Shown: positions 1 to 25,567 of the stretch, piece by piece | Layout: the number at the start of each line of letters is the position of its first letter | Numbering within the stretch: the stretch's first letter is position 1 | Assembly: GCA_035261025.1 (NCBI GenBank) | Contig: DATFUG010000137.1 | Span: forward strand, 1 to 36,161 | Origin: Steroidobacteraceae bacterium | GTDB taxonomy: Bacteria; Pseudomonadota; Gammaproteobacteria; Steroidobacterales; Steroidobacteraceae | Length of the DNA stretch: 36,161 nt | Direction: 5' to 3' | Notes under the pieces: generated by a model | The model's input: only the letters and a program-made list of their open reading frames with translations | Told to the model about the DNA's origin: nothing | The model's database searches: none | Program-made: the position numbers and the translations under genes

Positions 1-687
1 CAGGTTGGCGGGCTCGTCATACAGGCGCATGGGCGTATCGATCTGCTGCACCTCGCCGGCATTGAACACCACGATGCGCTGCCCCAGGGTCATCGCCTCG
101 ATCTGATCGTGCGTCACGTACAGCATGGTGGCGCGCAGCCGCCTGTGGAGCCGGGCGATCTCCGCGCGCATGCCGAGGCGTAACTTGGCGTCCAGATTCG
201 AGAGCGGTTCATCCAGCAAAAATACCTGTGGACTGCGCACCAGGGCGCGGCCAAGCGCCACGCGCTGGCGCTGGCCCCCGGAAAGTTGCCGCGGCTTCCG
301 ATCCAGCAGGGTGTCGAGCTCAAGCGTCGCTGCGGCGGCGCGCACCTTGGCATCCAGGTCCGCGCGCGCCATCCCGCGGAGGCGCAACCCAAAGGCCAGG
401 TTCTCGTAGACATTCATGTGTGGATAGAGCGCGTAGCTCTGAAACACCATCGCAATGTCACGATCGCGGGCCGGCAGGTCGTTGACCACGCGCCCGCCAA
501 TGCTCAGCGCGCCGCTGGTGATGCTCTCCAGTCCGGCGATCATGCGCAGCAGCGTCGATTTGCCACAGCCCGACGGTCCCACGAGGGCCAGAAGCTCGCC
601 ATCGGCCGCGTCGAAGCTGGCCCCGGCCACCGCTACGTGGCCGTTTTCATACACCTTTCGAAGCGCTTCGAGCCGTACCCCGGCCAT
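1..687 (-). CDS. Sugar-type ABC transporter ATP-binding subunit (MalK/UgpC/MsiK-like); the C-terminal part lies beyond the window edge
   Basis: Absent from the ORF track because it runs off the edge. Reverse translation from ATG (685-687) gives [20 protein letters not shown]... It carries Walker [10 protein letters not shown], the ABC signature [15 protein letters not shown], Walker [10 protein letters not shown] and the H-loop VTHDQ. The frame stays open exactly to nt 1 (687 = 229 codons). Confidence 0.9.
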
Positions 688-795: not shown

Positions 796-2202
796 GTGAA
801 CGACAAGCTCTTGCGGTTTCCGGCCGGCTTTCTCTGGGGCACTGCCACTTCCGCTTATCAGATCGAGGGATCGCCGCTGGCCGATGGTGCCGGGCCCTCC
901 ATCTGGCAGCGATTCTGCCGCACGCCCGGGCTGGTGCGCGACGGCCAGAGCGGCGATGTGGCCTGCGACCATTACCGGCGCTACCAGAGCGACGTTGCGC
1001 TGATGCGCGAGCTCGGCCTCAAGGCCTACCGCTTCAGCATCTCCTGGAGCCGCGTGCTGCCTGCGGGCCGCGGCGCCGTCAACGCTGCGGGTCTCGGCTT
1101 CTACGATCGCCTCGTCGATGAACTTTTGGGCCACGGCATCGAGCCACTGGTGACACTGCATCACTGGGACCTGCCGGCCGCCCTCGATGATCGCGGCGGA
1201 TGGCTCAATCCCGACATCGCGCAGTGGTTTGCCGACTACGCCTCCGTTGTTTTCCGCAAGCTCGACGGGCGCGTGAAGCACTGGGTGACACACAATGAAC
1301 CCTGGGTGATCGCGGACGGCGGGTACCTGCACGGCGTGCTCGCGCCGGGGCATCGCAACGTCTACGAGGCGCCGATCGCGACGCATAACCTGCTGCGCGC
1401 CCATGGCGCCGCGGTGCAGGCCTATCGCGCCACGGGCAAGCATCGCATCGGACTGGTCGTCAATCTCGAGCCGAAGTACGGCGCGACGCCGGCAGAGGAG
1501 GACCGTGCCGCCACGGCGCGCGCCGATGCCTACATGAACCGCCAGTATCTCGACCCGGTCTTCCTGGGAAAATATCCCGAGGAGCTGCGCGAGATCTTCG
1601 GCGAAGCCTGGCCGACGTGGCCCGCGGCCGATCTGGAACTGATTCGCCAGCCGCTCGATTTCCTGGGCGTCAACTACTACACGCGCAATGTCACGCGCGC
1701 CAACGCGCAGAGCTGGCCGCTGCGCGCGGAAATGGTGCGCCAGACGCAGGCGACCTACACGGAGACCGGCTGGGAAGTCTTCCCGCAGGGCCTGACCGAT
1801 ACGCTGCTGTGGGTGAAGAACCGCTACGGCAATCCGCCCGTCTTCGTGACGGAGAACGGCGCGGCCTTCTTCGACCCGGCGGCGCCGGAGCAGGGCCGGA
1901 TCGATGATCCACTGCGCGTGGAATATCTTCGCGAGCATATTGCCGCGGTGCGCGCCGCCATCGCACAGGGTGCGGACGTGCGCGGCTATTTCGTCTGGTC
2001 GCTGCTCGATAACTTCGAGTGGGCACTCGGCTATTCAAAGCGCTTCGGCATCGTGCATGTCGATTACTCGACGCAGCAGCGCACGCCCAAGGCGAGCGCC
2101 CGCTACTACTCCAGCGTCATTGCGACGCACGGCGCCGCGGCCGAAAAGGCCGAGACGGGAACGCGGAGCGCAGCCGCGCCGACGCTCCTCACCGCGAGTT
2201 GA
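796..2202 (+). CDS. GH1 beta-glucosidase
   Basis: This is the in-frame 3' part of track ORF 286..2202, trimmed to GTG at 796. The upstream part is antisense to the ABC ATPase. N-terminus is VNDKLLRFPAGFLWGTATSAYQIEG, with the acid/base motif THNEPW and the nucleophile motif VTENGAAF. Confidence 0.9.
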   Translation: MNDKLLRFPAGFLWGTATSAYQIEGSPLADGAGPSIWQRFCRTPGLVRDGQSGDVACDHYRRYQSDVALMRELGLKAYRFSISWSRVLPAGRGAVNAAGLGFYDRLVDELLGHGIEPLVTLHHWDLPAALDDRGGWLNPDIAQWFADYASVVFRKLDGRVKHWVTHNEPWVIADGGYLHGVLAPGHRNVYEAPIATHNLLRAHGAAVQAYRATGKHRIGLVVNLEPKYGATPAEEDRAATARADAYMNRQYLDPVFLGKYPEELREIFGEAWPTWPAADLELIRQPLDFLGVNYYTRNVTRANAQSWPLRAEMVRQTQATYTETGWEVFPQGLTDTLLWVKNRYGNPPVFVTENGAAFFDPAAPEQGRIDDPLRVEYLREHIAAVRAAIAQGADVRGYFVWSLLDNFEWALGYSKRFGIVHVDYSTQQRTPKASARYYSSVIATHGAAAEKAETGTRSAAAPTLLTAS

Positions 2203-3244
2203 ACGGCCTTCCGGCCGGTGCTCCGGGCGCGGCCGGCCGCTCGGCGAGCATGACCTGCACGAGCTTCGCCATCATCTGCTCGATCTGCGCCGGCGTCATC
2301 TCGCCGAGCACGCCACGCCCTTCCGGTGCAATGTGCAGCGCCGGATCGCCGTGGGCATGAAATACGAAATGCTCGAAGTGGGCACGCCAGATATTGCGCT
2401 GCTCGGCCGGTAGCGTGGCGATGGCCAGTATGGCGTGCATGAGGCTGGTATAGGGCGGCCCGTCGGAGCGTGGCAACCCGTTCCACCAGTAATTGACGAG
2501 GATATTGAAAGGCGCCAGCGACTGCACGCCGTGCCACCACATGTAGGGAATGTAGAGGGCATCACCCGGCTCGAGCTCCGCCGTCTGCGCCGCCGCGTAG
2601 GCCAGCTCAAACTTCGGAAAGCGCGCCAGATCGGGGTGGGCGATGTCGACCAGGCTGATGGGCACGCCTTGCGGAGTGGAGTGCAGGGGGCCGACGTACA
2701 GGTTTTCCAGCTGCTCGGGCGGAAACAGCACGAAGCGGCGCCGGCCCGCCGCCACGCAGGCAATATTGTCCTTGCAGTCATAGTGGGCCGCGACCGTGCT
2801 GGTATTGCCAATCCAGATAGTCGGGCGCGTACCGGCGGGAGGGAGACCCAGGCTGTTGTGAATCTCCAGCTCCGGCAAGTGCTTCGGTATGGACAAGGCC
2901 TGGATGGACAGGGCCGGCGGCTCGGCCTGCTCCGCGCTGGCCAGCATCAGACGCAGCACGTCGGCAAACTTCGCCCGCACGCGGGTGAAGTTCTCACCGG
3001 TCATGTTCCCGTTGTAGGAAAAGCGGCCCTGGATCTGCGGTTCGCCCGCCAGATACTCCACCTGGGTCCCCGCATTGAGCACCTGCAGGTAATCGACGGC
3101 CGCCGCGGCGGATTCCATCCCCTTGCGCACCAGCGGCCAATCGGCGACCAGGCCTTTCAATACCGCTGGCTTGCGGGCGACGGCAATCTCGGATTCAAAG
3201 ACCCGCTGATCCACGTTTCGCCACTGGGGAATCTCCGCTGCCAT
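2189..3244 (-). CDS. Cupin-like / JmjC-domain (cupin_8) protein, putative Fe(II)/2-oxoglutarate oxygenase
   Basis: Track ORF of 351 aa. It has WIGNTSTVAAHYDCKDN (an HxD motif), RRFVLFPP and GDALYIPYMWWHGVQS (distal His), the pattern of JmjC/cupin_8 proteins. It is the last gene of the compact minus-strand operon, starting 3 nt after the stop of the upstream gene. Confidence 0.7.
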   Translation of the reverse strand: MAAEIPQWRNVDQRVFESEIAVARKPAVLKGLVADWPLVRKGMESAAAAVDYLQVLNAGTQVEYLAGEPQIQGRFSYNGNMTGENFTRVRAKFADVLRLMLASAEQAEPPALSIQALSIPKHLPELEIHNSLGLPPAGTRPTIWIGNTSTVAAHYDCKDNIACVAAGRRRFVLFPPEQLENLYVGPLHSTPQGVPISLVDIAHPDLARFPKFELAYAAAQTAELEPGDALYIPYMWWHGVQSLAPFNILVNYWWNGLPRSDGPPYTSLMHAILAIATLPAEQRNIWRAHFEHFVFHAHGDPALHIAPEGRGVLGEMTPAQIEQMMAKLVQVMLAERPAAPGAPAGRPFNSR

Positions 3245-3247
3245 GCA

Positions 3248-4387
3248 CTAATTTCTCACGGAGCCAGGGCCGCCAACCGGCGCAAGCCTTGGGATGCGGT
3301 CCGCGACGGGCGGCAGCGCCGGAAACGGCGCGTGCGGCTCCGTCTGGTACCAGTAGGCGACCGAGTAGAAATTGTCGGAGCGGTGATTGGCGTGGCCGTG
3401 TTCAATCGTAGCCCGGAACGATTTCGTGAACGGGATGGGGGAATCGAGATGAAAGCGATAGACAGTCGAACGGCTGCCCGTCTGCTCATCGCCTTTGACG
3501 GGGGCGCCGTACAGCGGATATGAGAAAGAGTGCGTGCCAAAGCCCCAGGCACCGAGGAAATAGTCCTCGGCACCGGTGCCATTGATGACGGGCAGGGTGC
3601 TGCCGTCAACGAAGAACATGTCGTCGCCCTCGCCCCACCAGCCATCCTGATTCTGCAGCACGGAGAGGGTGACGCCGACAAAGTGGCCGCGGCCGCGGGC
3701 TTCCATCCACACGTAGTTGCCCTCGCCGGAAAGATTGCTGCGAGTGTTCACGAGCGGCTCGCCATTGGCGCTCCAGCTGGACGTCCAGCCGTGGTTTGGT
3801 GCCGCCTGGCGATACTGCGCGTGAAAATACAGCGTGTCGGCGGGCAGCGGCCGCATGCAGACGCGATAGTCAATGTTGAAGTACAGGGCATCCACGCCTG
3901 CCGCGCCCTCGTTGGTGACGGTGATGCGGGCGTGCTTTCGAAACGGCATGGGGAAAAATGAGTTCAGGGCCTTCTCGGGGGCCACGGCCAGCGGCGCGGA
4001 CTGGTACAGGAAATACTCACCGAGCCCCAGGCCGAAAAAATCGCCGATTGGCGCTTCGACGCTGGGCGTCGCCTCGGCGTCCCAGTAGATTCGAAGCACC
4101 AGCTTCTTGAGGTGAAACTCCTCGCGGCTCGAGATCGTAAACCATAGATGGGAAATGACGCCGGGCCCGGCAGCGTCCAGCAGCGTCAGGGTCTCGCCGG
4201 GACGGACCGGACGGGCATCGTCGTTGGCACCGGCACGATCGTAGCTCGAGGCGCGATGCTGTACATAGTCGTGCGGACGCGTAAGGCCGGCGAGCGAGCC
4301 CGCGGCATCGAGACAGCCCTGCGCCTGGGTGGCCTGGATGCCGGAGAAGAGTAGCAGCGGGCCCAGCGATGCGAGGCGTGCGATCAT
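3248..4387 (-). CDS. DUF2961 / GH172-like secreted glycoside hydrolase-like protein
   Basis: Track ORF 3248..4582 trimmed to ATG 4385-4387, which gives the signal peptide MIARLASLGPLLLFSGIQATQAQG. The start overlaps the upstream permease stop as ATGA. GPGVISHLWFT and the C-terminal SVAYWYQTEP resemble DUF2961 family members as I remember them. Confidence 0.65.
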   Translation of the reverse strand: MIARLASLGPLLLFSGIQATQAQGCLDAAGSLAGLTRPHDYVQHRASSYDRAGANDDARPVRPGETLTLLDAAGPGVISHLWFTISSREEFHLKKLVLRIYWDAEATPSVEAPIGDFFGLGLGEYFLYQSAPLAVAPEKALNSFFPMPFRKHARITVTNEGAAGVDALYFNIDYRVCMRPLPADTLYFHAQYRQAAPNHGWTSSWSANGEPLVNTRSNLSGEGNYVWMEARGRGHFVGVTLSVLQNQDGWWGEGDDMFFVDGSTLPVINGTGAEDYFLGAWGFGTHSFSYPLYGAPVKGDEQTGSRSTVYRFHLDSPIPFTKSFRATIEHGHANHRSDNFYSVAYWYQTEPHAPFPALPPVADRIPRLAPVGGPGSVRN

Positions 4388-5205
4388 CCCTTGACGCTCC
4401 CCAGTGTAATGCCCCGGAGGTAGAAGCGTTGCAGGGACAGGAACAGCGCCAGCACCGGCAGCACCGTGATGACGGCTCCGGCCATCATCATCTCGTTGTC
4501 CTGCACGTGTTCGCGCGCCAGGCCGGCCAGCGCCACCGGCAGGGTCTGCATGTCGCGGTCGCTGAGCACGATCAGCGGCCACATGAAATCATTCCAGGTG
4601 CCCAGGAATACGAAGATACCGAGCGTGACCAGGATCGGCGTGAGCACCGGCAGCACCACGGAGCGGAAGATGCGCCATTCGCCGGCACCGTCGATGCGCG
4701 CCGCGTCCAGCAATTCATCGGGAATCGACAGCGCGTACTGGCGCACCAGGAAGATGCCGAAGATGCTGGCGATGCCGGGCACGATCGCGCCGGCGTAGCT
4801 GTTGACGAGGCCCAGAAACTTGAGCAGTCCGAACAGCGGGATCATCGTCACCTGGCCCGGCACCAGCAGGCCCGCGAGCAGCAGCCGGTAGACCGACTCG
4901 CGGCCGCGGAAGCGCAGCTTCGCGAAGGCGTAGCCGGCCATGCCATTGAACACCAGCGCGAGCAGCGTGGCGCTGGTGGCCACGATCACGCTGTTGATGA
5001 AATACCGGCCCATGTGCTGGCCCGCGAACAGATCGCGGTAGTGATCGAGCGTGAGCGAACTCGGCAGTAGCGGTGGCGGATAAGTCGACGAGGCGCCGGT
5101 CGGCATGAGCGAAACGGAGACCATCCACGCCAGCGGGAACACGGTCAGCGCAGCGGCCAGCCACAGGGCGGCGTTGACCAGCCAGGCCTGCGCACGCGGG
5201 TTCAT
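4384..5205 (-). CDS. Carbohydrate ABC transporter permease (MalG-like)
   Basis: Track ORF 4384..5487 trimmed to ATG 5203-5205 (MNPRAQAWLVNAALWLAAALTVFPLAWMV). It has the EAA-loop-like DAARIDGAGEWRIFRSVVLP and multiple hydrophobic spans. The start forms an ATGA overlap with the upstream permease stop. Confidence 0.85.
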   Translation of the reverse strand: MNPRAQAWLVNAALWLAAALTVFPLAWMVSVSLMPTGASSTYPPPLLPSSLTLDHYRDLFAGQHMGRYFINSVIVATSATLLALVFNGMAGYAFAKLRFRGRESVYRLLLAGLLVPGQVTMIPLFGLLKFLGLVNSYAGAIVPGIASIFGIFLVRQYALSIPDELLDAARIDGAGEWRIFRSVVLPVLTPILVTLGIFVFLGTWNDFMWPLIVLSDRDMQTLPVALAGLAREHVQDNEMMMAGAVITVLPVLALFLSLQRFYLRGITLGSVKG

Positions 5206-6080
5206 GTCTCGCCCAGCCGCCGGGTGAGGCGCAGCTGCAGCGCCGTGATCAGCAGGATCAGCGCAAACAGGACGAAGGCCACGCTGGAGGCAGAACCCAG
5301 TTTCCACCAGGTGAAGCCCTGATCGAACATGAAGTACAGCACGCTGAGCGTGCTTTGCAGCGGCCCTCCCTGGGTCATCACGTAGGGCTCGGCGAACAGC
5401 TGGAAATAGCCGCTGACCGTGAGGATGCCGACCAGCGCCAGCGTCGGGGTGAGAAGCGGCAGCGTGATGTGGCGCAATCGCGCCCACGCCCCGGCGCCTT
5501 CAAGGCGCGCGGCGTCGTACAGATCCTCGGGAATGGCCTGCAGCGCGGCGATCAGGATGATCATGTTGTAGCCGAAATTCTTCCACACCGCGAGCAGCAC
5601 AATGGAGGGCATCGACCAGTGCGGATCGCCGAGCCAGTCGATGGCCGGCAATCCCAGATGAGTCAGCAGGTAGTTGATCAATCCGTAGCGCGTGTGCAGC
5701 AGATAGCGCCAGATCAGCGCCACGGCCACCAGCGACGTGACGACTGGAGCGAACAACGCCGTGCGGAACAGGGGCCGGAAGCGGGCCAGGCGTGAATCGA
5801 CCAGCAGCGCGGCGCCGAGCGATGCCAGGAGCGAGAGGGGCACACCCAGCACCACGAAAAAGGCGGTATTGCCGAGCGCCTGCCAGAACAGCGGCGTCAC
5901 CAGCAGCGTGCGGTAGTTGTCGAGCCCGATGTAGCGCAGGTTGGCAGGATCGGCCAGCGCATACAGATCGAAATCGGTGAAGCTCAGCAGCAGGGCCGCC
6001 ACGACCGGCAGCAGAAAAAAGACGCCGATCAGCAGCAGGGCCGGGAGCGAGAACCACCAGCCGGCGCGTGTGCGGTTCAT
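5202..6080 (-). CDS. Carbohydrate ABC transporter permease (MalF-like)
   Basis: Track ORF of 292 aa: MNRTRAGWWFSLPALLLIGVFFLLPVV, with the EAA-loop YDAARLEGAGAWARLRHITLP. The start forms an ATGA overlap with the stop of the binding-protein gene. Confidence 0.85.
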   Translation of the reverse strand: MNRTRAGWWFSLPALLLIGVFFLLPVVAALLLSFTDFDLYALADPANLRYIGLDNYRTLLVTPLFWQALGNTAFFVVLGVPLSLLASLGAALLVDSRLARFRPLFRTALFAPVVTSLVAVALIWRYLLHTRYGLINYLLTHLGLPAIDWLGDPHWSMPSIVLLAVWKNFGYNMIILIAALQAIPEDLYDAARLEGAGAWARLRHITLPLLTPTLALVGILTVSGYFQLFAEPYVMTQGGPLQSTLSVLYFMFDQGFTWWKLGSASSVAFVLFALILLITALQLRLTRRLGET

Positions 6081-7360
6081 CGCTTTTCCTGCCGGTCGAG
6101 CAGCCAGCGCCGCTTGGCGAGCATCGCATCCACCTCGGCGTCAAACTGGGTGACGGCGGCATCTTCGCTCTGCCCGCCACGCACGACACGCTCGGCCATC
6201 AATCGCATGCCCTGCATGATCTGCTCCCACTCGGGCAGCTGCTGGAAGGTGCGGAGCCGATCGAGCTGGATGCGGAAGGCTCGCGTGTAGGGATCGGTGG
6301 CGATGGCGCCGGATTCCCAGCTGCTGCGCCGCGGCGGCAGATCGCCCGTAATCTCGTAGAAGCGACGTTGCACCTCGGGGCGCGAGAGGTATTCGATCAG
6401 GGCCCAGGCGCTGGCCTTGTGCTCAGAGCGCCGGAAGATCACCAGGCTGGAACCGCCGGCGCTGGAGGCGCCGGGTCCGTCCGGGCCGGGCATCGGCGCG
6501 GTCATCCAGCTGCCCTGCTGCCCGGCCGGCAGGCGGCGCTTGAATTCACCGATATTCCAGGGTCCGGAGACATAGAACGAGAAGAATCCATTGCCCAACT
6601 CATCCCAGACGTTGGAAATCTGGGTGTTGGTCGCCATCGGCGCGAGCGACTGCGTGAACAACTGGTGGTAAAAGGCCAGCGCGCGCCGGAAGGAAGGGCT
6701 GCGAAAATTGCCGTAGCGATTGCCCTCCCGCAGCATGGCTTCCGGCTGCTGCAGGGCCAGGACCTGGAGCGGCTCGAATTCATTGAGCGGCAGCAGCACC
6801 GCGTAGCGCTGCGGCCCCACCATCCGCTTGATGGCCTGGAGCTGGCGCAGCCAGTCGGCCCAGTTGTCCGCCGGACCGGCAAATCCAGCCTGGCGCAGCA
6901 GATCGCTGCGGTAGAACAGCAAGCGGGTGTCGACGTACCAGGGCACGCCCCACGGCACGCCGCCGAGCGAATTGGCCTGCCAGACCTGGGGGAAAAAATC
7001 CGCGACCTCCACGATCTTCGATGCGGCGAGGCGCGACTGCAGCGGCTCCAGCGCATGCAGGGCGACGAGCTCGGGTATCCAGGTGTTGCCGAGCTGGCAC
7101 ATGTCGGGAGTGGCGTCGCCGGCCACGGCGGTGAGGAACTTCTCGTGCGCCGCCGTCAGGGCGAGGCGCTGCACCTCGACGTGCAGGCCCGGGTGTTCGC
7201 GCTCGAAGGCCGGCAACAGCGCACTCACCTGGTCCGCCTCGGCGCCAAAAGCCCAGAACTTCAGCACTTCGCCCTGCGGGGCGCCGCCACAGCCGCTTGC
7301 CACCAGGGCCGCCAGTAGCGGCGCGAGCCGGCCCGCGCGCGGGCTGTTCAGCCCAGCCAT
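6077..7360 (-). CDS. Extracellular sugar-binding protein (ABC family 1 SBP), lipoprotein-type signal
   Basis: Track ORF 6077..7966 trimmed to ATG 7358-7360: MAGLNSPRAGRLAPLLAALVASGCGG. The body has SBP_bac_1-like segments (VPWYVDTRLLFYRSDLL). The start overlaps the upstream GH144-like gene by 13 nt. Confidence 0.8.
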   Translation of the reverse strand: MAGLNSPRAGRLAPLLAALVASGCGGAPQGEVLKFWAFGAEADQVSALLPAFEREHPGLHVEVQRLALTAAHEKFLTAVAGDATPDMCQLGNTWIPELVALHALEPLQSRLAASKIVEVADFFPQVWQANSLGGVPWGVPWYVDTRLLFYRSDLLRQAGFAGPADNWADWLRQLQAIKRMVGPQRYAVLLPLNEFEPLQVLALQQPEAMLREGNRYGNFRSPSFRRALAFYHQLFTQSLAPMATNTQISNVWDELGNGFFSFYVSGPWNIGEFKRRLPAGQQGSWMTAPMPGPDGPGASSAGGSSLVIFRRSEHKASAWALIEYLSRPEVQRRFYEITGDLPPRRSSWESGAIATDPYTRAFRIQLDRLRTFQQLPEWEQIMQGMRLMAERVVRGGQSEDAAVTQFDAEVDAMLAKRRWLLDRQEKR

Positions 7361-8802
7361 CCGCCGCTGAATCCGGCGCGCTGCAGACCCCGGCGGATCA
7401 CCGGGTCGCGCTGCATCGTCTGCCAGAGCAGTCCACTGTGCTGGTTCTCCAGCATCGTCATGAGCGGTCCGTGCGTGATGCCGTAGTAACGCGAGTCGAC
7501 CCAGCCCAGCTCGCCCACCCGCCGCCCGCTCAGGAGCGGCACGTCGAACTGGAAACTCGGGTTGAAACTGTCGAGGAAGCCGTATTGTCCATAGATCACC
7601 GCGCCGTAGCGGCGATACATCTCGGCGGCGGCGGCCGTGGCCTGATCGGGCGTGAAGGGCAGGCACCCCAGGGCCGCGCTCGGCGTGATCGTGCCGTCGT
7701 CCAGGTTCTGGTCCGGATTCAGGCCGACGCCGCGGCCGGCATAGGTGCGGAACTGCCGTTGCACGCCCTGGTAGGAAAGGCTGCCCGTGTAGGGACCGTC
7801 GCAGGCGCTCAGGCCCCACACGTCGGGCCCGTAGCCCGCCCAGCCCAGGGGATTGGCCGTCGCGTAGGCGCGCTGCGAGAGCGCCGCGCGCCGGGTGTTC
7901 TCGAAGTAATCGATGCCGCGGGCGCGCAGGTACGCATCGCTCACCCCGCGCAGGTCCACCCAGCACTGCGTAAAGTGGTGACCAAAGAGCGGTCCAAAGG
8001 TGAGATGCTCGATGCCCTCGATCCTGCCCCAGCTCGCGTCATACCCGGAGGTCCAGACGGCCCAGGCATCCGTCCCGACGGCGTGCGCCTGTGAGCCCAG
8101 GGCCAGCAGGTAGACCGGGATCGCCTCGTTGTAGCCGATCCAGTCCGCGGACAGGAATCCGGTTTCCGGCCGCCAGCCCATGCAGACGCCCGGGCCGTTG
8201 GCCTGGGCCCAGTTCCACTCGACGCGCTCGCACAAGGCGTCCGCGATCGTACGGATCGCCACCTCGTCGACATCCGTGCCGTCGAAATACTGGCCGCAGA
8301 GGCGCGCACCCATCAGCAGCAGCGTCGTGTCGACGGTCGAGAGCTCCGAGTCGCGGTAACGCGTACCGCTGCTCATGTCGAGGAAGTGATAGAAAAAGCC
8401 GCGATAGCCGGTGCAACCGGTCGGGGCCGTCCCCTGCGGCGCATCGCGCAGGAACTCCAGCCAGCCCCGCACCCGTTGCGCGGCGGCGGCTCGCGGCACC
8501 CAGCCGTGCGCGACGCCGATGGGCACCGCGCTGAAGGCGAAGCCCATGGCCGCGATGCTGGCCGGCGCCGGGTCCGGCCAATAATCGGGCGCCAGCCCGC
8601 GCGCCGCCTCCGTGGTCTGCCAGAAATAATTGAAGCTGCGATGCAGGCTGTCCGCCAGCAGCGCGTCGGGGGTCAGCGGGGGCGGCGGGGGATAGCCGGC
8701 GGCGGGGACCGCCGGCGTCGAGCTCCCGCCGCAACCGACCAGGGCGCCGGCCGCCGTGGTCGCGGCCACCTGCAGGAAGCGGCGTCGCGTCAGCCGCGCC
8801 AT
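7348..8802 (-). CDS. Glucoamylase-like / GH144-like protein (putative endo-beta-1,2-glucanase family), Tat signal plus lipobox
   Basis: Track ORF of 484 aa. N-terminus MARLTRRRFLQVAATTAAGALVGCGG has a twin-arginine motif and an LVGC lipobox. FNYFWQTT..., SIAAMGFAFSAV and GFFYHFLDMSSGTR resemble the DUF3131/glycoamylase (GH144) family as I remember it. Confidence 0.6.
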   Translation of the reverse strand: MARLTRRRFLQVAATTAAGALVGCGGSSTPAVPAAGYPPPPPLTPDALLADSLHRSFNYFWQTTEAARGLAPDYWPDPAPASIAAMGFAFSAVPIGVAHGWVPRAAAAQRVRGWLEFLRDAPQGTAPTGCTGYRGFFYHFLDMSSGTRYRDSELSTVDTTLLLMGARLCGQYFDGTDVDEVAIRTIADALCERVEWNWAQANGPGVCMGWRPETGFLSADWIGYNEAIPVYLLALGSQAHAVGTDAWAVWTSGYDASWGRIEGIEHLTFGPLFGHHFTQCWVDLRGVSDAYLRARGIDYFENTRRAALSQRAYATANPLGWAGYGPDVWGLSACDGPYTGSLSYQGVQRQFRTYAGRGVGLNPDQNLDDGTITPSAALGCLPFTPDQATAAAAEMYRRYGAVIYGQYGFLDSFNPSFQFDVPLLSGRRVGELGWVDSRYYGITHGPLMTMLENQHSGLLWQTMQRDPVIRRGLQRAGFSGGWLG

Positions 8803-8803
8803 A

Positions 8804-10306
8804 TCAGACTGCCGCGGCCTTGCAGTGCCGGTCGATGAACTGCTGATGCATCGGCATCGCGTCGACGCAGTTGGCCACGATCATCTTGGCGTGGTCCATG
8901 AAGGTATAGAGATCGGCATCGCTCATCTGGTCAACCATCGGGTGATATCCGGCCGGCATGATGTGCTGTCCGATCATCACCTCCACCCAGCTCACCTGAC
9001 CAAACATTTCCTCCGCATTGCGAAAGAACCGGCCACTGTCCCTGAACAGCCGCACGGTGTCGGTGAGCGTCTCCGGTACGGGCATCGTCCGGCAGTAATT
9101 CCAGAACGGCGAGTCGTCGCGCTCGGTCGCGTGGTAGTGCATGATCAGGAAATCCCGGATCCGCTCGAATTCGAAGGTGCATTGCGCGTTGTAGCGGTCA
9201 ACGAGGACCTGGCTGATCTCACCGCCCGGAAACAGCAGCACCAGCTTGCCGATCGCCGATTGGATCAGGTAGATGCTGGTCGACTCCAGCGGCTCCATGA
9301 AGCCGCCGGCGAGGCCGACCGCCACGACGTTCCTGTTCCAGATCTTCCGGCGCTTGCCGGTCGTGAAGCGCAGCGGCCGGGGCTCAGCGAGGGCGCGCCC
9401 GTCGAGATTCCTGAGCAGGATGGCCGCGGCCTCGTCCTCGCTCATGAACTTGCTGCAGTACACGTGGCCGTTGCCGGTGCGATGCTGCAGCGGGATGCGC
9501 CATTGCCACCCGGCCGTGCGCGCGGTCGAGCGCGTATAGGGCGTCGGCGGACCGACCTTCTCGCAGGGCACCGCCAGCGCCCGGTCGCAGGGCAGCCAGT
9601 GGGTCCAGTCCTCGTAACCGGTATGCAATGCCTCCTCGATCAGCAGGCCGCGAAAACCGGAGCAATCGATGAACAGATCGCCACTGACGGCCTCGCCGCT
9701 CTCGAGCACCACGGCTTCGACGTAGCCATCGGTGGCGCGCAACCGGGTCTCGCGGATCTTGCCCTCGGTGCGCACCACGCCGCGCGCCTCGGCGTAGCGG
9801 CGCAGGTAGCGCGCGTACAGCCCGGCGTCGAAGTGGTAGGCATAGGCGACGTCGGCCAACGGCGAATTCTTCGGTGCGTCGCTGGCCGAGACCATGAATT
9901 TCTCGCGCGGCGCTGCCACCGTGTTGAGCGAGTAGTCGCCGAGTTCGGCCGCCCGGCCCGCCAGGCGGGCGCGCAGCCAGTAATGGTGGAACGGTATCGA
10001 GCCCAGGTCGTGTCCCAGGGTGCCAAAGCCGTGGATGTAGGTATCCCCGATGCGCCCCCAATCCCTGAACTGGATACCCAGCTTGAAGGTGCCCTGGGTC
10101 TGCCGGATGAATTCGGCCTCGTCGATCTCCAGCATCTTGTTGAAGTGGGACAGGTGCGGCACGGTCGCTTCGCCGACACCGACGATACCGATCTCCTCGG
10201 ATTCGACCAGGCGCAGCGCGTAGGTCTTGCCGAAAGTCTTGGCGAGCGCACAGGCGGCCATCCAGCCGGCGGTACCGCCCCCTACGATGACGATGTTCTT
10301 GATCAA
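8804..10306 (-). CDS. Flavin-dependent (tryptophan-type) halogenase family protein
   Basis: Track ORF 8804..10333. Motifs are IVIVGGGTAGW (GxGxxG), VGVGEATVPHL, GTFKLGIQF (conserved Lys), GWQWRIPL (WxWxIP) and GFMEPLESTSI (conserved Glu). The track start is a TTG at 10331-10333 inside the U-tract of the upstream terminator. I prefer the next in-frame TTG at 10304-10306, but the start is uncertain by 27 nt. Confidence 0.8.
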   Translation of the reverse strand: MIKNIVIVGGGTAGWMAACALAKTFGKTYALRLVESEEIGIVGVGEATVPHLSHFNKMLEIDEAEFIRQTQGTFKLGIQFRDWGRIGDTYIHGFGTLGHDLGSIPFHHYWLRARLAGRAAELGDYSLNTVAAPREKFMVSASDAPKNSPLADVAYAYHFDAGLYARYLRRYAEARGVVRTEGKIRETRLRATDGYVEAVVLESGEAVSGDLFIDCSGFRGLLIEEALHTGYEDWTHWLPCDRALAVPCEKVGPPTPYTRSTARTAGWQWRIPLQHRTGNGHVYCSKFMSEDEAAAILLRNLDGRALAEPRPLRFTTGKRRKIWNRNVVAVGLAGGFMEPLESTSIYLIQSAIGKLVLLFPGGEISQVLVDRYNAQCTFEFERIRDFLIMHYHATERDDSPFWNYCRTMPVPETLTDTVRLFRDSGRFFRNAEEMFGQVSWVEVMIGQHIMPAGYHPMVDQMSDADLYTFMDHAKMIVANCVDAMPMHQQFIDRHCKAAAV

Positions 10307-10323
10307 CCTGTTGGACCTGCACG

Positions 10324-10353
10324 AAAAAAACAAAGCCCGCAGGGCGGGCTTTG
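10324..10353 (-). terminator. Rho-independent terminator downstream of the TonB-dependent receptor gene
   Basis: Arms 10331-10340 (caaagcccgc) and 10344-10353 (gcgggctttg) form a 10-bp GC-rich stem with a 3-nt loop. On the minus strand the stem is followed by seven U (10324-10330). It sits about 50 nt after the TBDR stop. Confidence 0.8.
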
Positions 10354-10404
10354 TCGTATCGCCATTGCTGACGCCAAGTGTACTCCCCGGTGCTTAAACC
10401 CGGA

Positions 10405-13400
10405 TCACCACTTGAAGCCCACCGTCATCTTCAGCGTCCTCGTCACGCCAATGATCGGCCCGCTGGTGTTGTACGCCGGTTGATTTGGATAATTGTACGA
10501 GGCCGCCGTTGAGTCAAAGTTCTGCGCGTTGAGGAGGTTGAGCACATCCAGGCGCACGTAACCACTCATGTTCTGGGGCAGATCGAAGCTTTTCGTCACC
10601 TGCATGTCCACGCTCTGGTAACCAAACAGGACATTGCCGACGGCGTCCGCGACCGGATAGGCGTTGGTCCCGAAGGCATTGCAGGAGGTCCCATTGGCGA
10701 AGCCCAGCTGGCTACACCCGGCAATCGTGGTCACGGGAATCGGCGTCGCCAGCGTCAGCTTGCCGGCAAACAACAGGCCCCATGGACCATCGACGCTGCC
10801 CGTGGCGACCATCCTGTGCCTGGCCACCGCACTCGAGAGCGTGAAGGGGTAGTCCGCGATGTGCGGCAGGTCGAAGCCATAGCCGTCCGTAAACAGGCGG
10901 TTCTGCTTCGCGTCGGTGAAGGTATAAGCAAACGTTGCACCCCAATGCGATTCACGCGTATAGGGCTTCTCCGCAGAGACCAGGAGTTCGGTCGTGCGCG
11001 TCTCCTGACCGTTCTCCCACAGCACGAGGTTGCTCTGCAGGCCCGGCAGGCCGGCGGAGCACCACTGCGCGGGTGAGCCGCCCCAGTCCAGGCCGCAGCC
11101 GCGCGTGGCAAAGCTGCCGTCGGCGTAGCGGTTGCCCAATACGCCCAGCAACCCTTCGTAGCTGTTGATGCGCGTCAGCGTGACGCTGGTGTTCCAGTCG
11201 CCGACCTTGTTGCGTATGCCAAGGCTGAACTGGTCTGAATAGGGCACCTTCAGATTGTTCGGGAACATGTTCGCTTCGCCGCCGGGAGCGCCCAGTCCCT
11301 GCAGATTGGCCGCGTTCAGGTACATGGGATTCCAGTCCAGGCAGGTTGTCCCGTTCGCGTCGCCAGGCGGCAGCGCGGCCGGCCCGCCAGGCACGATGCA
11401 GTTGTTGTAACTGTATTTGCCACCCGTGAAGTTGATCGTCGGCTCCGACAGGGCGTTCTTCGAATTCTCGAGCTGCAGCTTGTCGAACAGATTGCGGTCA
11501 TAGGCGCGGCCCACACCGCCGAACACCACGTGCTTCTCATCGGCGTTGATGTCGTACGAGAATCCCAGGCGCGGCGCGACCTCGCCGGCGGGCGTCTTGC
11601 GATTGCTCCCGGTGCTGATGTAATCGTTGATGTTGATGCCGCCAAGCGCCAGCGCGTCAGCATAGGTCTCGCCCGGCGTCGGCCGGGGCAACTGCAGGGC
11701 TGGATTCGCGTTGACGCCCGGATCCGGATACGGCTGCTGGAGCGCCGTGAGGATCCGATCGAGCGTCTTGTAGTTCTCGAACGACGGCGTGACTTCGTAG
11801 TCATAGCGGATACCGAGGTTCAGCGTCAGGTGCTGGTTGACCGCCCAGTCGTCCTGGAAGTAAATGCCAATCTGCTTGTTGTCCGACTTCGAGGTCAGCG
11901 GCAGGCCGAAGCTGGCCTTGCCAAACACCACCTGGAACGGGGTCGCCTGTGTGCCGCTCGCATCGACCGCGTACCAGTACTTGGCTGCTTCGGACCCGTC
12001 GCGCGCGACGAGCTGCACGCCCTTGTACTTGACGCCCATCTTCAGCGTGTGCTCGCCCATCCAGTGCAGGTTGCTGAACGTCAGGTCGTCCTGGATGCCC
12101 CAGCCGTCCTGGTGCTTGTCGGTGTACTGGCGCGGATCCGCACCGTTGATGGTGATGATGTCCTGGCGGAACTGACCGGCGTTGCCAAAGTAGGTGTAGG
12201 TGATCCCGGGATTGCCGTTGAGCGGCGTCGGGAGGTCGACGGTTTTTTCGTAGAGGGCCATCATTTCATTGACCCAGCGATCGCTGCTGTGCTGCCAGCG
12301 CAGATTCACGCGGGTGTCTTCGTTCTTGAAGTTGAAGCCCGCCGACACCGCCACGTTGCCGGACCCGCCCTGGACTTCGGTCTCACGGCGCAGCTTGGTG
12401 CTCAGCTCGATGCGGTCGCTATCGCTCGGTTCCCAGTCGACCTTGGCGAAATAGAGATTTTCCTTGAACGGGGTCGCGCTCGGACCAAACTGCTCAAACA
12501 CACCCGCGGGCAACAGGGTGGCCAGCGGTATGCCGGCGAGGCTCCCATCGGGATTGACGGTGGTCGGCAGCGTGAAGTCCTTGTGCTCCCAGGTGACGAA
12601 ATAATGCATCGCATCCATGATGATCGGGCCGCCGACGGCCAGACCGTACTCGGTATTCGCGGACTTGACCTTGGCACCCCCGGCGGCGTCTTCGGACGGC
12701 GTGGCGGCACGCAGCGACTCGTTGGTGTAGTCGCCGAACAGCTCGCCGTGGAGGGTATTCGTGCCCGACTTCGTCTGCGCCGTGATCGCGGCGCTGGAGA
12801 TCTGGTCGTATTCCGCCTTGTAGTTCGAGGTGATGACCTTGTACTCACCGATGGCGAGCTGGGGGAAGGGGTTGCCAGGATCGCCATTCCCGTTCGGACC
12901 GGCCTGGCCGGAGATGCCACCCGTCTTGACGTAGTTCTTCTGGCCCACGCCGTCGATGAACACGTTGATGGCGCTGTTGGCCTGCGCACCGCTCTGGATC
13001 GAGGTGTTGCCCCGCGTGTCGACGCTGAACACCATGCCCGGCACGGTATCGGCGAACTCCAGGAAGTTGCGCGTGATCTGCGGGGTGGTCTCGATTTGAT
13101 GCAGCGACACGGTCGAGCCAATTTCAGAGGTCTTGACCTCAACCAGGCGTGTCGCCCGGACGATGATCTCCTCCAGCGTACCGGTCGCTTCCACCCCGCC
13201 CGCGCCCAGATCGAGGGTCGCCGTGGATGCGACGCTCAGCGTCACGGTCTGTTCAGTGCCTGGACCGGCATCGACGCGGTAGGTGCCCGAGGGCAGGCCG
13301 GCCAGGGCGTAGGTGCCATCGGCACCCGCCGTGGTGCGGCGCGTGGCGCCCGTGGCGATATTCTTCGCCGTGATCTGGCTGTTGGCGGCGGCCGTTCCGC

Positions 13401-13521
13401 GCAGGGTGGCATCGGCCGTCTGTGACCAGACGATCGACGGGACGAAGGCGGTCGACGCCAGCGCCGTCGCAAACACCGATCCGTACACTTTCTTCTTGCT
13501 GTTGCGATACCGCTTCTTCAT
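10405..13521 (-). CDS. TonB-dependent receptor with N-terminal carboxypeptidase-regulatory-like domain (Oar-like TBDT)
   Basis: Track ORF of 1038 aa with a signal peptide. DGTYALAGLPSGTYRV matches a CarboxypepD_reg-like fold, LEEIIVRATR is TonB-box/plug-like, and a long beta-barrel follows, ending in an aromatic residue (GFKW). A strong SD (GGAAGGA) lies 4 nt before the ATG. Confidence 0.9.
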   Translation of the reverse strand: MKKRYRNSKKKVYGSVFATALASTAFVPSIVWSQTADATLRGTAAANSQITAKNIATGATRRTTAGADGTYALAGLPSGTYRVDAGPGTEQTVTLSVASTATLDLGAGGVEATGTLEEIIVRATRLVEVKTSEIGSTVSLHQIETTPQITRNFLEFADTVPGMVFSVDTRGNTSIQSGAQANSAINVFIDGVGQKNYVKTGGISGQAGPNGNGDPGNPFPQLAIGEYKVITSNYKAEYDQISSAAITAQTKSGTNTLHGELFGDYTNESLRAATPSEDAAGGAKVKSANTEYGLAVGGPIIMDAMHYFVTWEHKDFTLPTTVNPDGSLAGIPLATLLPAGVFEQFGPSATPFKENLYFAKVDWEPSDSDRIELSTKLRRETEVQGGSGNVAVSAGFNFKNEDTRVNLRWQHSSDRWVNEMMALYEKTVDLPTPLNGNPGITYTYFGNAGQFRQDIITINGADPRQYTDKHQDGWGIQDDLTFSNLHWMGEHTLKMGVKYKGVQLVARDGSEAAKYWYAVDASGTQATPFQVVFGKASFGLPLTSKSDNKQIGIYFQDDWAVNQHLTLNLGIRYDYEVTPSFENYKTLDRILTALQQPYPDPGVNANPALQLPRPTPGETYADALALGGININDYISTGSNRKTPAGEVAPRLGFSYDINADEKHVVFGGVGRAYDRNLFDKLQLENSKNALSEPTINFTGGKYSYNNCIVPGGPAALPPGDANGTTCLDWNPMYLNAANLQGLGAPGGEANMFPNNLKVPYSDQFSLGIRNKVGDWNTSVTLTRINSYEGLLGVLGNRYADGSFATRGCGLDWGGSPAQWCSAGLPGLQSNLVLWENGQETRTTELLVSAEKPYTRESHWGATFAYTFTDAKQNRLFTDGYGFDLPHIADYPFTLSSAVARHRMVATGSVDGPWGLLFAGKLTLATPIPVTTIAGCSQLGFANGTSCNAFGTNAYPVADAVGNVLFGYQSVDMQVTKSFDLPQNMSGYVRLDVLNLLNAQNFDSTAASYNYPNQPAYNTSGPIIGVTRTLKMTVGFKW

Positions 13522-13563: not shown

Positions 13564-14583
13564 CTAGGCGCGTGTGAGTGCAGTCTTCGTCGCGGCGCCG
13601 CAGGAAGCGCGTACGACAAGTTGGGTTCCGAGCGTGTGCGTTGCGCGGCTGACGCTGCCGGGCGCGTCGATCGCGCGCGCCAGTTCATCCAGCGACTGGC
13701 GACCGAGTTCCGTGGTCTGGGCCCGCACGGTCGTCAGTGGCGGCGTGACGAATCGCGCGATCGGTATGTCGTCGAATCCGCCGAGCGCGATGTCCTCCGG
13801 AACACGAATACCGGCCTCCGTGAGCGCGAACAGGCAGCCGATGGCCATCACGTCGTTGGCGGCGAAGACGGCGTCCGGGCGCGGCGCAGCCTGCGCCAGC
13901 TGCCGCCCTGCGAGATAGCCGGATTCCTCGGTAAACGCACCCGGCAGCACCAGGGCCTTGGCGGCCCGGACCGGCCCCAGCGCCGCGCGAAAGCCGCGCA
14001 GCCGCTCCGCCGATTCATAGTTGCCTTCCGGTCCGGTGATGTGTGCGATGTTCATGTGACCCAGACCACGCAGGTGCTCGACCATCGCCTTGGCGCCGCC
14101 GAAATCGTCGATCATGAAGGCGGGTGCACGGGCTGCATTGTCCGGGGTGTTGAGCAGCACCGTCGGGAGAGTCGCGGGCAGAGCATTGCCCAGCAGCTGT
14201 GCGTCGACGTAAGGCGACATGATCAGCACGCCGTCGACCCGGCCGTTCATGGCGCGCAACGCCAAAGAGGCCTCTTCGGCATCGCCATGGGAGCTCGATA
14301 CCAGCAGGTGCAGTCCCCTGAGGCGGGCGGCCCGATCGATGCCCCGGATCAGCTCTGAAAAGTACTCGCCGTAGATGTCGGGCAGGAGCACGCCGATGGT
14401 ATTGGTGCGTCTTGTGATCAAACTGCGCGCCACACCATGTGGCGTATAACGCAGTTGCCGTGCGGCGCGTTCCACGCGCAGGCGTGTCTTTTCGGTGACA
14501 ACGCCCGTGCCATGCAGGGCCCGGGACACGGAGGCGATGGAGACCCTGGCACGCAATGCCACGTCCTTGATGGTCACCGCCAT
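13564..14583 (-). CDS. LacI-family transcriptional repressor
   Basis: Track ORF 13564..14595 begins at a GTG. I prefer ATG 14581-14583, which is preceded by GGGAGG. The HTH is MAVTIKDVALRARVSIASVSRALHG, followed by a periplasmic-binding-protein-like sugar-binding core. Confidence 0.9.
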   Translation of the reverse strand: MAVTIKDVALRARVSIASVSRALHGTGVVTEKTRLRVERAARQLRYTPHGVARSLITRRTNTIGVLLPDIYGEYFSELIRGIDRAARLRGLHLLVSSSHGDAEEASLALRAMNGRVDGVLIMSPYVDAQLLGNALPATLPTVLLNTPDNAARAPAFMIDDFGGAKAMVEHLRGLGHMNIAHITGPEGNYESAERLRGFRAALGPVRAAKALVLPGAFTEESGYLAGRQLAQAAPRPDAVFAANDVMAIGCLFALTEAGIRVPEDIALGGFDDIPIARFVTPPLTTVRAQTTELGRQSLDELARAIDAPGSVSRATHTLGTQLVVRASCGAATKTALTRA

Positions 14584-14610
14584 CCCCCCTCCCACGGTAC
14601 CCCTACTCCA

Positions 14611-14665: not shown

Positions 14666-14695
14666 ATTCTAGATACAAGCACGCAAAGCTGTCAA
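14666..14695 (-). promoter_or_regulatory. Sigma70-type promoter for the lacI-TBDR transcription unit
   Basis: On the minus strand, -35 is TTGACA (14690-14695) and -10 is TAGAAT (14666-14671), separated by an 18-nt spacer. The predicted start falls within or next to operator O2. Confidence 0.6.
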
Positions 14696-24412: not shown

Positions 24413-25567
24413 ATGGCTGTGGACCGGGAGATTTCGATGCGCAGACCGACCATCCATTCGTGGTTGCCGCTTTGCGTCGCACTGTGCGCGGCCGTCACCA
24501 GCGCGCCGGCGGTGGCGCAACTGAAAACACGCAATGTGGTGCTGATTGTGTCCGACGGCCTGCGCTGGCAGGAAGTCTTCACGGGCGCGGACCGGAGTCT
24601 GCTCGACGATCCCAAGAGCGGCATGTGGGAGAGCGCAGCCAGTCTCAAGAAACGCTTCTGGGATGATTCTCCGGCCGCGCGCCGCCGGCTGCTCATGCCC
24701 TTCATGTGGGACGTGATCGCGAAGCAGGGTCAGCTGTTCGGCAACCAGGAGGTGGGCAGCATCGCCCGCGTGACCAACGGCGTGGCGTATTCCTATCCCG
24801 GCTACAACGAGATGCTGACCGGGCACCCCGACCCGCGCATCGACCGCACCGACATCGACGGCAACAACTATGGGCCGAACCCGAACGTGACGGTTTTCGA
24901 GTGGCTCAACCAGCAACCGGGCCTTGAGGGCAAGAGCGCCGTGTTCGGAAGCTGGACCTGGTTTACCGACGTCTTCAACGAAGCGCGGAGCCATCTGGAC
25001 ATGCGGGTGGGATCCAGGCTGCCACCCACGCCCAATCCGACGCTGCGCCAGGCGCTCCTTGAACGGCTCTATCGCACAACCACGGCGCAGGAAGAGGGCG
25101 AAGTTCCGGATGCCTTCGTGCAGGCCCGCTTGCTGGATTACCTGGAGACGAACCATCCCCGGGCGCTGTTCGTGGGCTATGGCGAGACCGACGACTGGGG
25201 ACACGCCGGACGGTACGATCTGCTCCTGGAGGCCGTGCACCATCTGGATCTATTTGTGCACGAACTGTGGGATACGATGCAGTCCATGCTTCAATACCGC
25301 GGCCAGACCACCTTCATCATCACGGCCGATCACGGGCGCGGCAGCGGCCTGGTGGACTGGAAAGAGCACGGCGTCGGGCAGAAGGGATCGGAGAATATCT
25401 GGATCGCGACGATCGGCCCGGACACGCCGCCGCTGGGCGAGCGGCACGGCGCGCCGGCCGTCGAGCAGGCGCAGATCGCGGCCACGATCGCGGCCCTGCT
25501 GGGCCAGGACTATCGCGCGGCGGTGCCGCTCGCGGCGCCTCCCCTGCCGGTGTTGCCCGGGAACTGA
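24413..25567 (+). CDS. Alkaline-phosphatase-superfamily metalloenzyme (phosphodiesterase/pyrophosphatase-like), secreted
   Basis: Track ORF of 384 aa, with SD GGGAG 7 nt upstream of the ATG. The signal peptide ends ...TSAPAVAQ. VVLIVSDGLRW, GYGETDDWGHAG and FIITADHGRG fit the metal-ligand pattern of the AP/NPP superfamily. Confidence 0.65.
   Translation: MAVDREISMRRPTIHSWLPLCVALCAAVTSAPAVAQLKTRNVVLIVSDGLRWQEVFTGADRSLLDDPKSGMWESAASLKKRFWDDSPAARRRLLMPFMWDVIAKQGQLFGNQEVGSIARVTNGVAYSYPGYNEMLTGHPDPRIDRTDIDGNNYGPNPNVTVFEWLNQQPGLEGKSAVFGSWTWFTDVFNEARSHLDMRVGSRLPPTPNPTLRQALLERLYRTTTAQEEGEVPDAFVQARLLDYLETNHPRALFVGYGETDDWGHAGRYDLLLEAVHHLDLFVHELWDTMQSMLQYRGQTTFIITADHGRGSGLVDWKEHGVGQKGSENIWIATIGPDTPPLGERHGAPAVEQAQIAATIAALLGQDYRAAVPLAAPPLPVLPGN

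Follow-up and report, generated by a model that had tools for sequence, protein, structure and literature searches.

A cupin gene closes a string of seven packed genes

The stretch analysed here (hereafter the window) comprises 36,161 nucleotides of contig DATFUG010000137.1 from a Steroidobacteraceae bacterium. We examined a gene at 2189..3244 (minus strand) encoding a predicted Cupin_8/JmjC-type Fe(II)/2-oxoglutarate (2OG) hydroxylase, referred to below as the cupin and assigned from PF13621, PDB and Foldseek searches and an AlphaFold2 (AF2) model. Its open reading frame (ORF) runs from an ATG start to a TGA stop and codes for 351 aa. The gene is the last of seven packed genes located downstream of genes for a LacI-family regulator (13564..14595; PF00356, PF13377) and an Oar-like TonB-dependent receptor (TBDR) with an N-terminal CarboxypepD_reg domain (10405..13521; PF25183, PF00593, PF13620), all on the minus strand. 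In the direction of transcription, the seven genes encode a flavin-dependent halogenase-like protein of the BrvH/Xcc4156 type (8804..10306, with a listed start at 10333; PF04820, E 1e-201), a glycoside hydrolase (GH) of the GH144 endo-β-1,2-glucanase type with a Tat/lipoprotein-like signal (7348..8802; PF10091), the solute-binding lipoprotein of an ATP-binding cassette (ABC) importer (6077..7360; PF01547, PF13416; its homologue at genomic locus L085 has 425 aa), ABC permeases 1 and 2 (5202..6080 and 4384..5205; both PF00528), a DUF2961 (GH172-like) periplasmic protein with a Sec signal peptide (3248..4387; PF11175, E 7e-83) and the cupin. Each junction from the halogenase gene to the cupin gene is either overlapping or at most 3 nt wide. 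An initial annotation of this DNA had placed the cupin last in an operon, alongside a flavin halogenase-like protein, hydrolases and an importer, with its start 3 nt past the DUF2961 stop, and this layout was borne out: the DUF2961 stop codon TAG lies at 3248-3250, the cupin ATG at 3242-3244, and the three nucleotides between them are TGC.

The 3′ end of the cupin gene overlaps by 14 nt (2189-2202) that of a convergent GH1 β-glucosidase gene (796..2202, plus strand; PF00232, E 1e-163), and there is therefore no space for a terminator between the two. Divergent from the GH1 gene, the 5′ part of a MalK-like ABC ATPase gene (1..687, minus strand) runs past the window edge; it probably encodes the missing ATPase of the operon importer and showed 94% amino acid identity by tblastn to an ABC_tran/OB_MalK gene at L085. 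Upstream of the LacI gene, a promoter-like site (TTGACA-18-TAGAAT, 11 of 12 matches) was found at 14666-14695, and GH39, GH31 and GH15 genes lie further upstream. A 511-aa ORF beside the GH15 gene (25250-26785, minus strand) had no Pfam match at E ≤ 0.001.

The junction between the TBDR and halogenase genes contains a strong, GC-rich terminator-like hairpin with a 12-bp stem and a T-run (10329..10355, minus strand). The single transcript proposed in the initial annotation is thus supported in part: the packing from halogenase to cupin agrees with it, and transcription of the whole string from the TBDR promoter would need read-through of the hairpin. The same type of element was present at 40 of the 51 TBDR-to-halogenase junctions collected from many genera (loci L001-L170), against 2-8 in shuffled sequences and 10 on the antisense strand. 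This suggests a conserved attenuation at this junction, with high expression of the receptor and low expression of the downstream enzymes. The listed TTG start of the halogenase gene (10333) falls inside the T-run of the terminator; translation probably starts at position 10306, an in-frame TTG (MIKNIVIVGGG...) where alignments to PDB sequences begin.

The cupin has the fold and metal-binding residues of JmjC-only hydroxylases

Pfam searches matched the cupin to Cupin_8 (PF13621) with an E-value of 4.3e-65 and 220.6 bits (cut-off 27.4), residues 16-256 covering profile positions 4-248 of 252. JmjC_2 was a second, weak match, and the Pfam scan detected no DNA-binding or signalling domain in the cupin. 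For the cupin and for the DUF2961 and GH144 proteins, no NCBIfam model was matched. The top match in a PDB sequence search was the human asparaginyl hydroxylase FIH/HIF1AN (E 2e-20, residues 149-275). In the HMMER alignment with FIH (1h2k), the motifs AAHYD (residues 152-156) and WWHGV (236-240) placed H154, D156 and H238 opposite the iron ligands H199, D201 and H279; the corresponding codons lie at 2777..2785 (H154-Y155-D156, the HxD of the facial triad) and 2531..2533 (H238, the distal histidine in the WWH motif), both on the minus strand. The three residues were invariant across 88 genomic cupin homologues, as was H238 in a set of 63. The intact HxD...H triad noted in the initial annotation was therefore recovered, and by sequence alignment it corresponds to the metal site of FIH.

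The position of the putative 2OG site is lined by N160, R169, N251 and Y252, reported as invariant (for R169, in 86 of 88 homologues). N160 aligns with the 2OG-contacting N205 of FIH. R169 (codon 2738..2740, minus strand) takes the position of FIH K214, which binds the C5-carboxylate of 2OG; the remaining 2 of the 88 homologues have Lys there, so the charge is kept and the residue differs. The cupin is predicted to bind Fe(II) and 2OG, with Arg169 replacing the usual JmjC lysine.

An AF2 model built from 63 homologues reached a predicted local distance difference test score (pLDDT) of 91.8 and a predicted template modelling score (pTM) of 0.87. Its nearest solved folds in Foldseek were TYW5, FIH, JMJD5 and JMJD7, all JmjC-only hydroxylases, with a probability of 1.00. 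The assignment of the cupin as a JmjC-only Cupin_8 oxygenase of the FIH/TYW5/JMJD5 structural clade is well supported by alignment and model together. Neither a hydrophobic nor a Tat-like signal is present at the N-terminus, which the model places within the fold (pLDDT 96); the cytoplasmic location proposed in the initial annotation is therefore a reasonable prediction. A periplasmic role was rejected since there is no signal peptide. Likewise, a histone-demethylase reading was discarded: the protein lacks JmjN and chromatin domains, and its nearest folds belong to hydroxylases and not to histone lysine demethylases.

The likeness to FIH extends beyond the shared triad positions: N160 and N251 of the cupin match FIH N205 and N294, and both proteins have a C-terminal helical region past the barrel. 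They differ in that identity is only about 22-25%, that FIH K214 and T196 are replaced by Arg169 and Val151, and that the cupin is a bacterial, predicted cytoplasmic protein for which no ankyrin or HIF-like substrate is known. The tRNA wybutosine hydroxylase TYW5 (3al5) resembles the cupin model with a Foldseek E-value of 1.7e-24 and a template modelling (TM) score of 0.65-0.74, and JMJD5 with a target TM score of about 0.84. TYW5, JMJD5 and JMJD7 act on tRNA or on Arg/Lys of eukaryotic proteins, however, and no equivalent is evident for the cupin. To our knowledge, every structural relative of the cupin that has been characterised acts as a hydroxylase on side chains of macromolecules, either protein or tRNA.

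The partner enzyme resembles BrvH/Xcc4156-type flavin halogenases

The halogenase-like gene lies 5.5 kb from the cupin gene and shares its strand and its string of packed genes. Its product aligned over its full length with PDB entries 9luq, 6y1w and 6frl (E 1e-146 to 1e-164) and carries the flavin adenine dinucleotide motif GGGTAGW, K84, the WxWxIP-type motif GWQWRIP and the motif EPLESTS. Among the catalytic residues, K84 was nearly invariant and E350 invariant. The three structures are of BrvH/Xcc4156-type halogenases and are relatives of this partner enzyme, not of the cupin. We know of no natural substrate for this type of halogenase; its members brominate indole in vitro, and flavin-dependent halogenases require electron-rich aromatic substrates, not sugars.

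The operon is predicted to target β-1,2-glucan

The DUF2961 protein matched PDB entries 7v1v (E 2e-78) and 8ic8, a difructose-dianhydride synthase/hydrolase and an exo-α-D-arabinofuranosidase, which we take to be members of GH172. The GH144 protein matched XCC2207 (8xul, E 4e-157) and also the endo-β-1,2-glucanase 5gzh. XCC2207, also named XcSGL, belongs to GH144 and has been shown to cleave β-1,2-glucan (PMC12102758). Because the hydrolases of the operon, in particular the GH144 protein through its likeness to XCC2207, point to this polymer, the simplest reading is that the operon is an uptake system for β-1,2-glucan or sophoro-oligosaccharides. The TBDR would take up the glucan, which would be trimmed in the periplasm and imported by the ABC system, and the cytoplasmic β-glucosidase would cleave the products.

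The cupin is an optional addition within its own lineage

The closest relatives of the cupin occur in several gene arrangements. In L085-87 the cupin is 90% identical and the whole operon is collinear with that of the window (85-92% nucleotide identity); the DUF2961 gene is absent and the cupin gene is again last, 26 nt after permease 2. Comparison of the two showed that the DUF2961 gene is a clean gene-sized indel (window 3252-4382, minus strand, versus L085 9975-10000). At L091 (83% identity) the cupin is found with a convergent GH1 gene, MalK, GH39 and a TBDR. At L089 (78% identity) the gene order is halogenase, halogenase fragment, cupin and GH144, followed by GH39, GH144, PhyH, major facilitator superfamily (MFS) and glucose-methanol-choline (GMC) oxidoreductase genes. 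Orthologues with 75-77% identity (L081-83, L088) are stand-alone genes beside EamA, 2-hydroxyacid dehydrogenase and PadR/TonB_C genes, with no halogenase or TBDR within 10 kb. At L084, a cupin with 60% identity is the second cupin of its locus, placed after a TBDR-halogenase-halogenase-cupin-GH31 string and followed by an aspartyl protease gene.

The orthologous operon of Rudaea and Rhodanobacter (L092/L094/L095) has the LacI, TBDR, halogenase, GH144, solute-binding protein and permease genes and the convergent GH1 gene, and no cupin; in L092 a different ORF, for a secreted protein, occupies the place of the cupin. Since this operon does without the gene, and since linked and unlinked cupins interleave in a neighbour-joining tree, sequence comparison indicates that the cupin is mobile and optional, added to an operon whose 3′ end varies.

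Three other observations concern the neighbourhoods of this lineage. The second halogenase gene of L089 is a truncated fragment of 276 aa. The PhyH-type classical 2OG dioxygenase of the same locus (9721-10560), beside GH144, MFS and GMC oxidoreductase genes, recalls the "second dioxygenase" of Iyer et al. In the window, a gene at 19517-22345 (minus strand) encodes a 942-aa protein with a trypsin-like protease and a C-terminal TonB_C domain, a homologue of which (L081 14956-17805) lies about 4 kb from the stand-alone 77% cupins of L081-L083. The cupin and the gene for the 942-aa protein may once have been neighbours in an ancestral arrangement that was later reshuffled in the window.

Cupins usually accompany halogenases, and halogenases usually do without cupins

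Among the candidates scored, at least 4,609 proteins belong to the cupin family at E ≤ 1e-10; genomes yielded about 590 halogenase loci. We retrieved 80 genomic cupin homologues, 41-58% identical to the cupin, and annotated TBDR, halogenase, SapC and cupin genes in the 80 cupin-anchored loci with purpose-built hidden Markov models (HMMs). The models were used in place of tblastn with the window TBDR, which missed divergent receptors, and all TBDR counts are lower bounds. Antisense "families" typical of high-GC DNA, which appeared in the single-linkage clustering of ORFs (cluster 1, probably cluster 5), were disregarded. Linkage was counted at the 46 loci with at least 5 kb of flank on either side.

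A halogenase gene was found within 10 kb of the cupin at 33 of these 46 loci (about 72%) and directly adjacent to it at 20. A TBDR was near the cupin at 29 or more, SapC adjoined it at 9, and 12 loci had no halogenase, TBDR or SapC. The conserved linkage to halogenase-like and TBDR genes that the initial annotation had proposed to look for thus exists across genomes. Two gene orders recurred: TBDR-halogenase-SapC-cupin-halogenase (T-H-S-C-H) in beta- and gammaproteobacteria, and TBDR, two to five halogenases and cupin in alphaproteobacteria. The two halogenases of T-H-S-C-H loci, one upstream of SapC and the other downstream of the cupin, share only about 30% identity and therefore represent distinct subtypes. 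Alphaproteobacterial loci had 3-5 tandem halogenase paralogues behind one TBDR (L009, L016, L017, L105, L136, L161, L165, L169 and others).

Anchoring the search the other way, on 79 new halogenase loci, gave a different picture. A TBDR was adjacent to the halogenase in at least 45 of the 79, most of the remainder ending at contig edges; it was the commonest detected partner, and a TBDR gene followed by a halogenase gene forms the core unit. A cupin within 10 kb was found at only 11 of the 79 loci. Given 33 of 46 in one direction and 11 of 79 in the other, linkage is asymmetric: cupins usually accompany halogenases, and halogenases usually do without cupins.

Among 98 randomly sampled neighbours of halogenase-linked cupins, LacI regulators, MFS/sugar transporters, GH3, GH16, GH9, GH1, GH67, GH97, glucokinase and ROK proteins dominated, and no nonribosomal peptide synthetase (NRPS) or polyketide synthase (PKS) was among the 25 commonest Pfam families. 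GH families beside the halogenase/cupin module elsewhere were GH3, GH16, GH9, GH31, GH67, GH97 and GH1. Within the window, scanning all ORFs with a minimum length of 110 aa recovered a single cupin, a single halogenase and a single TBDR, with no match to a SapC HMM built from 17 loci. Pfam annotation of the window revealed no NRPS, PKS, NIS synthetase or other scaffold-building enzyme and no tailoring or export genes of a secondary-metabolite cluster, and such genes were equally absent from the 25 commonest neighbour families.

Cupins not linked to a halogenase were repeatedly paired with a gene for a protein of about 330 aa that carries a pair of retropepsin-like Asp_protease_2 domains, and a LysE exporter gene was often close by. 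The protease gene is upstream of the cupin in L003, L004, L010, L021, L054 and L071, and downstream in L084 (11056-12042). No such gene was found in the window.

The neighbourhood matches a module described in 2010

Iyer, Abhiman, de Souza and Aravind described a TBDR, tryptophan-halogenase, SapC and JmjC neighbourhood in alpha- and gammaproteobacteria in 2010, placed the bacterial TBDR-linked proteins in the JmjC-only hydroxylase clade, found SapC to be a frequent but not obligatory member and predicted the synthesis of a halogenated siderophore-like compound (PMC2938197). Our literature search found this description of the neighbourhood, no link to glycan loci and no function. The association of cupin, halogenase and TBDR is thus known since 2010, and the window adds one example. 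Like the published neighbourhood, the window combines, on a single strand, a cupin, a TBDR and one halogenase-like gene, and its cupin falls in the module-linked family. Unlike it, the window has no SapC, the cupin lies unusually far from the halogenase, behind 5.5 kb of GH144, ABC importer and GH172-like genes, and the locus is a LacI-regulated glycan operon and not a siderophore-type system.

The cupin may act on a non-carbohydrate substrate shared across loci

Collectively, the data lead us to favour, with somewhat better than even confidence, the view that the cupin is a cytoplasmic JmjC-only oxygenase, an optional part of the module, with a substrate that is most likely not a carbohydrate and is shared across loci. 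The enzyme would bind Fe(II) and 2OG and use O2 to hydroxylate its substrate. It belongs to a proteobacterial family that repeatedly accompanies a TBDR and a flavin halogenase, with or without SapC, in carbohydrate-scavenging loci, and on this view it was appended in this lineage at the variable 3′ end of the operon. Candidate targets are side chains of proteins or peptides and small aromatic molecules on which the halogenase would act as well. An imported sugar is an unlikely substrate because the module adjoins receptors for unrelated glycans and because the relatives of the cupin modify macromolecules; the diversity of the neighbouring hydrolase families also disfavours chemistry specific to one glycan or aglycone.

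Several points weigh against this interpretation. The identity of the substrate is the weakest step and is purely inferred. Arg169 at the usual lysine position departs from canonical JmjC enzymes, and 2OG use is likewise inferred. The hairpin upstream of the halogenase gene means that co-expression with the TBDR is not guaranteed. Finally, the orthologues with 75-77% identity are unlinked to a TBDR or halogenase, and the cupin may be unrelated to the operon it closes.

This last point underlies an alternative that we regard as unlikely, in which a 3′ end prone to recombination acquired the cupin, whose role would be a housekeeping one such as the hydroxylation of a cellular protein, with no functional tie to the operon. 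The stand-alone orthologues with their EamA, 2-hydroxyacid dehydrogenase and PadR/TonB_C neighbours fit such a gene, as do the variability of the operon 3′ end (the DUF2961 indel and the different ORF of L092) and the separate cupin sub-lineage paired with an aspartyl protease gene. However, the enrichment of halogenase genes across the family is far above any plausible background, and three arrangements within the cupin's own lineage keep the company of halogenase, GH144, GH1 and GH39 genes.

The initial annotation had proposed that the cupin and the halogenase carry out a dedicated modification step coupled to uptake, acting on an imported sugar, aglycone or signalling compound. The tight, co-oriented packing of the cupin with the importer and hydrolases, its predicted location in the cytoplasm, where the import route ends, and the position of the L089 cupin directly between halogenase genes and a GH144 gene all speak for this proposal. 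We nevertheless consider it distinctly unlikely: the predicted β-1,2-glucan has no aromatic aglycone and offers no aromatic group to a flavin halogenase, the same module is found beside many unrelated GH families, the orthologous Rudaea/Rhodanobacter operon does without a cupin gene, and the 75-77% orthologues have no link to a TBDR or halogenase.

Equally doubtful is the prediction of Iyer et al. (2010), according to which the JmjC protein, halogenases and SapC build a halogenated and hydroxylated, amino-acid-derived, siderophore-like metabolite that the TBDR imports. It comes from a published neighbourhood analysis (PMC2938197), the catalytic Lys and Glu motifs of the halogenase are conserved, and structures of the BrvH/Xcc4156 type have been deposited as tryptophan halogenases. 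The absence of NRPS, PKS or scaffold enzymes from the window and from the 25 commonest neighbour families argues against it, and the window TBDR heads a glucan operon. LacI-type regulators, glycoside hydrolases and sugar transporters as neighbours indicate carbohydrate scavenging and not siderophore biosynthesis.

A non-catalytic, sensing cupin, for instance a 2OG or O2 sensor tuning glycan uptake, would suit a gene that is optional in the operon and whose closest sequence relative, FIH, is an oxygen sensor (2OG itself reports carbon and nitrogen status), but it is very improbable, since the catalytic triad and pocket residues are kept family-wide, as expected of an active enzyme, and no DNA-binding or signalling domain is present.

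Returning to the favoured non-carbohydrate substrate, one specific and quite improbable form of it is that the JmjC hydroxylase and the halogenase are a cytoplasmic pair modifying proteins or peptides of the TonB-dependent uptake machinery. This idea follows from the TBDR being the commonest halogenase partner (45 of 79 loci) and from the cupin relatives modifying macromolecules. Should such a pair exist, its targets might conceivably be the receptor precursor, a TonB-like protein, SapC or a regulator.

Implications for TonB-dependent carbohydrate uptake

In Xanthomonas, Caulobacter, Sphingomonas, Massilia, Cellvibrio, Steroidobacter and their relatives, the module is part of loci for nutrient scavenging, and the sole published prediction for it, a siderophore-like metabolite, fits poorly with this carbohydrate context. 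The role of a JmjC hydroxylase and a flavin halogenase beside glycan receptors is a real gap in the understanding of TonB-dependent carbohydrate uptake. The window does not itself solve the puzzle; it supplies one clear case and identifies the cupin as a dispensable partner. If the uptake machinery were the target, its modification would represent a new post-translational layer over outer-membrane glycan import in TBDR-rich Proteobacteria.

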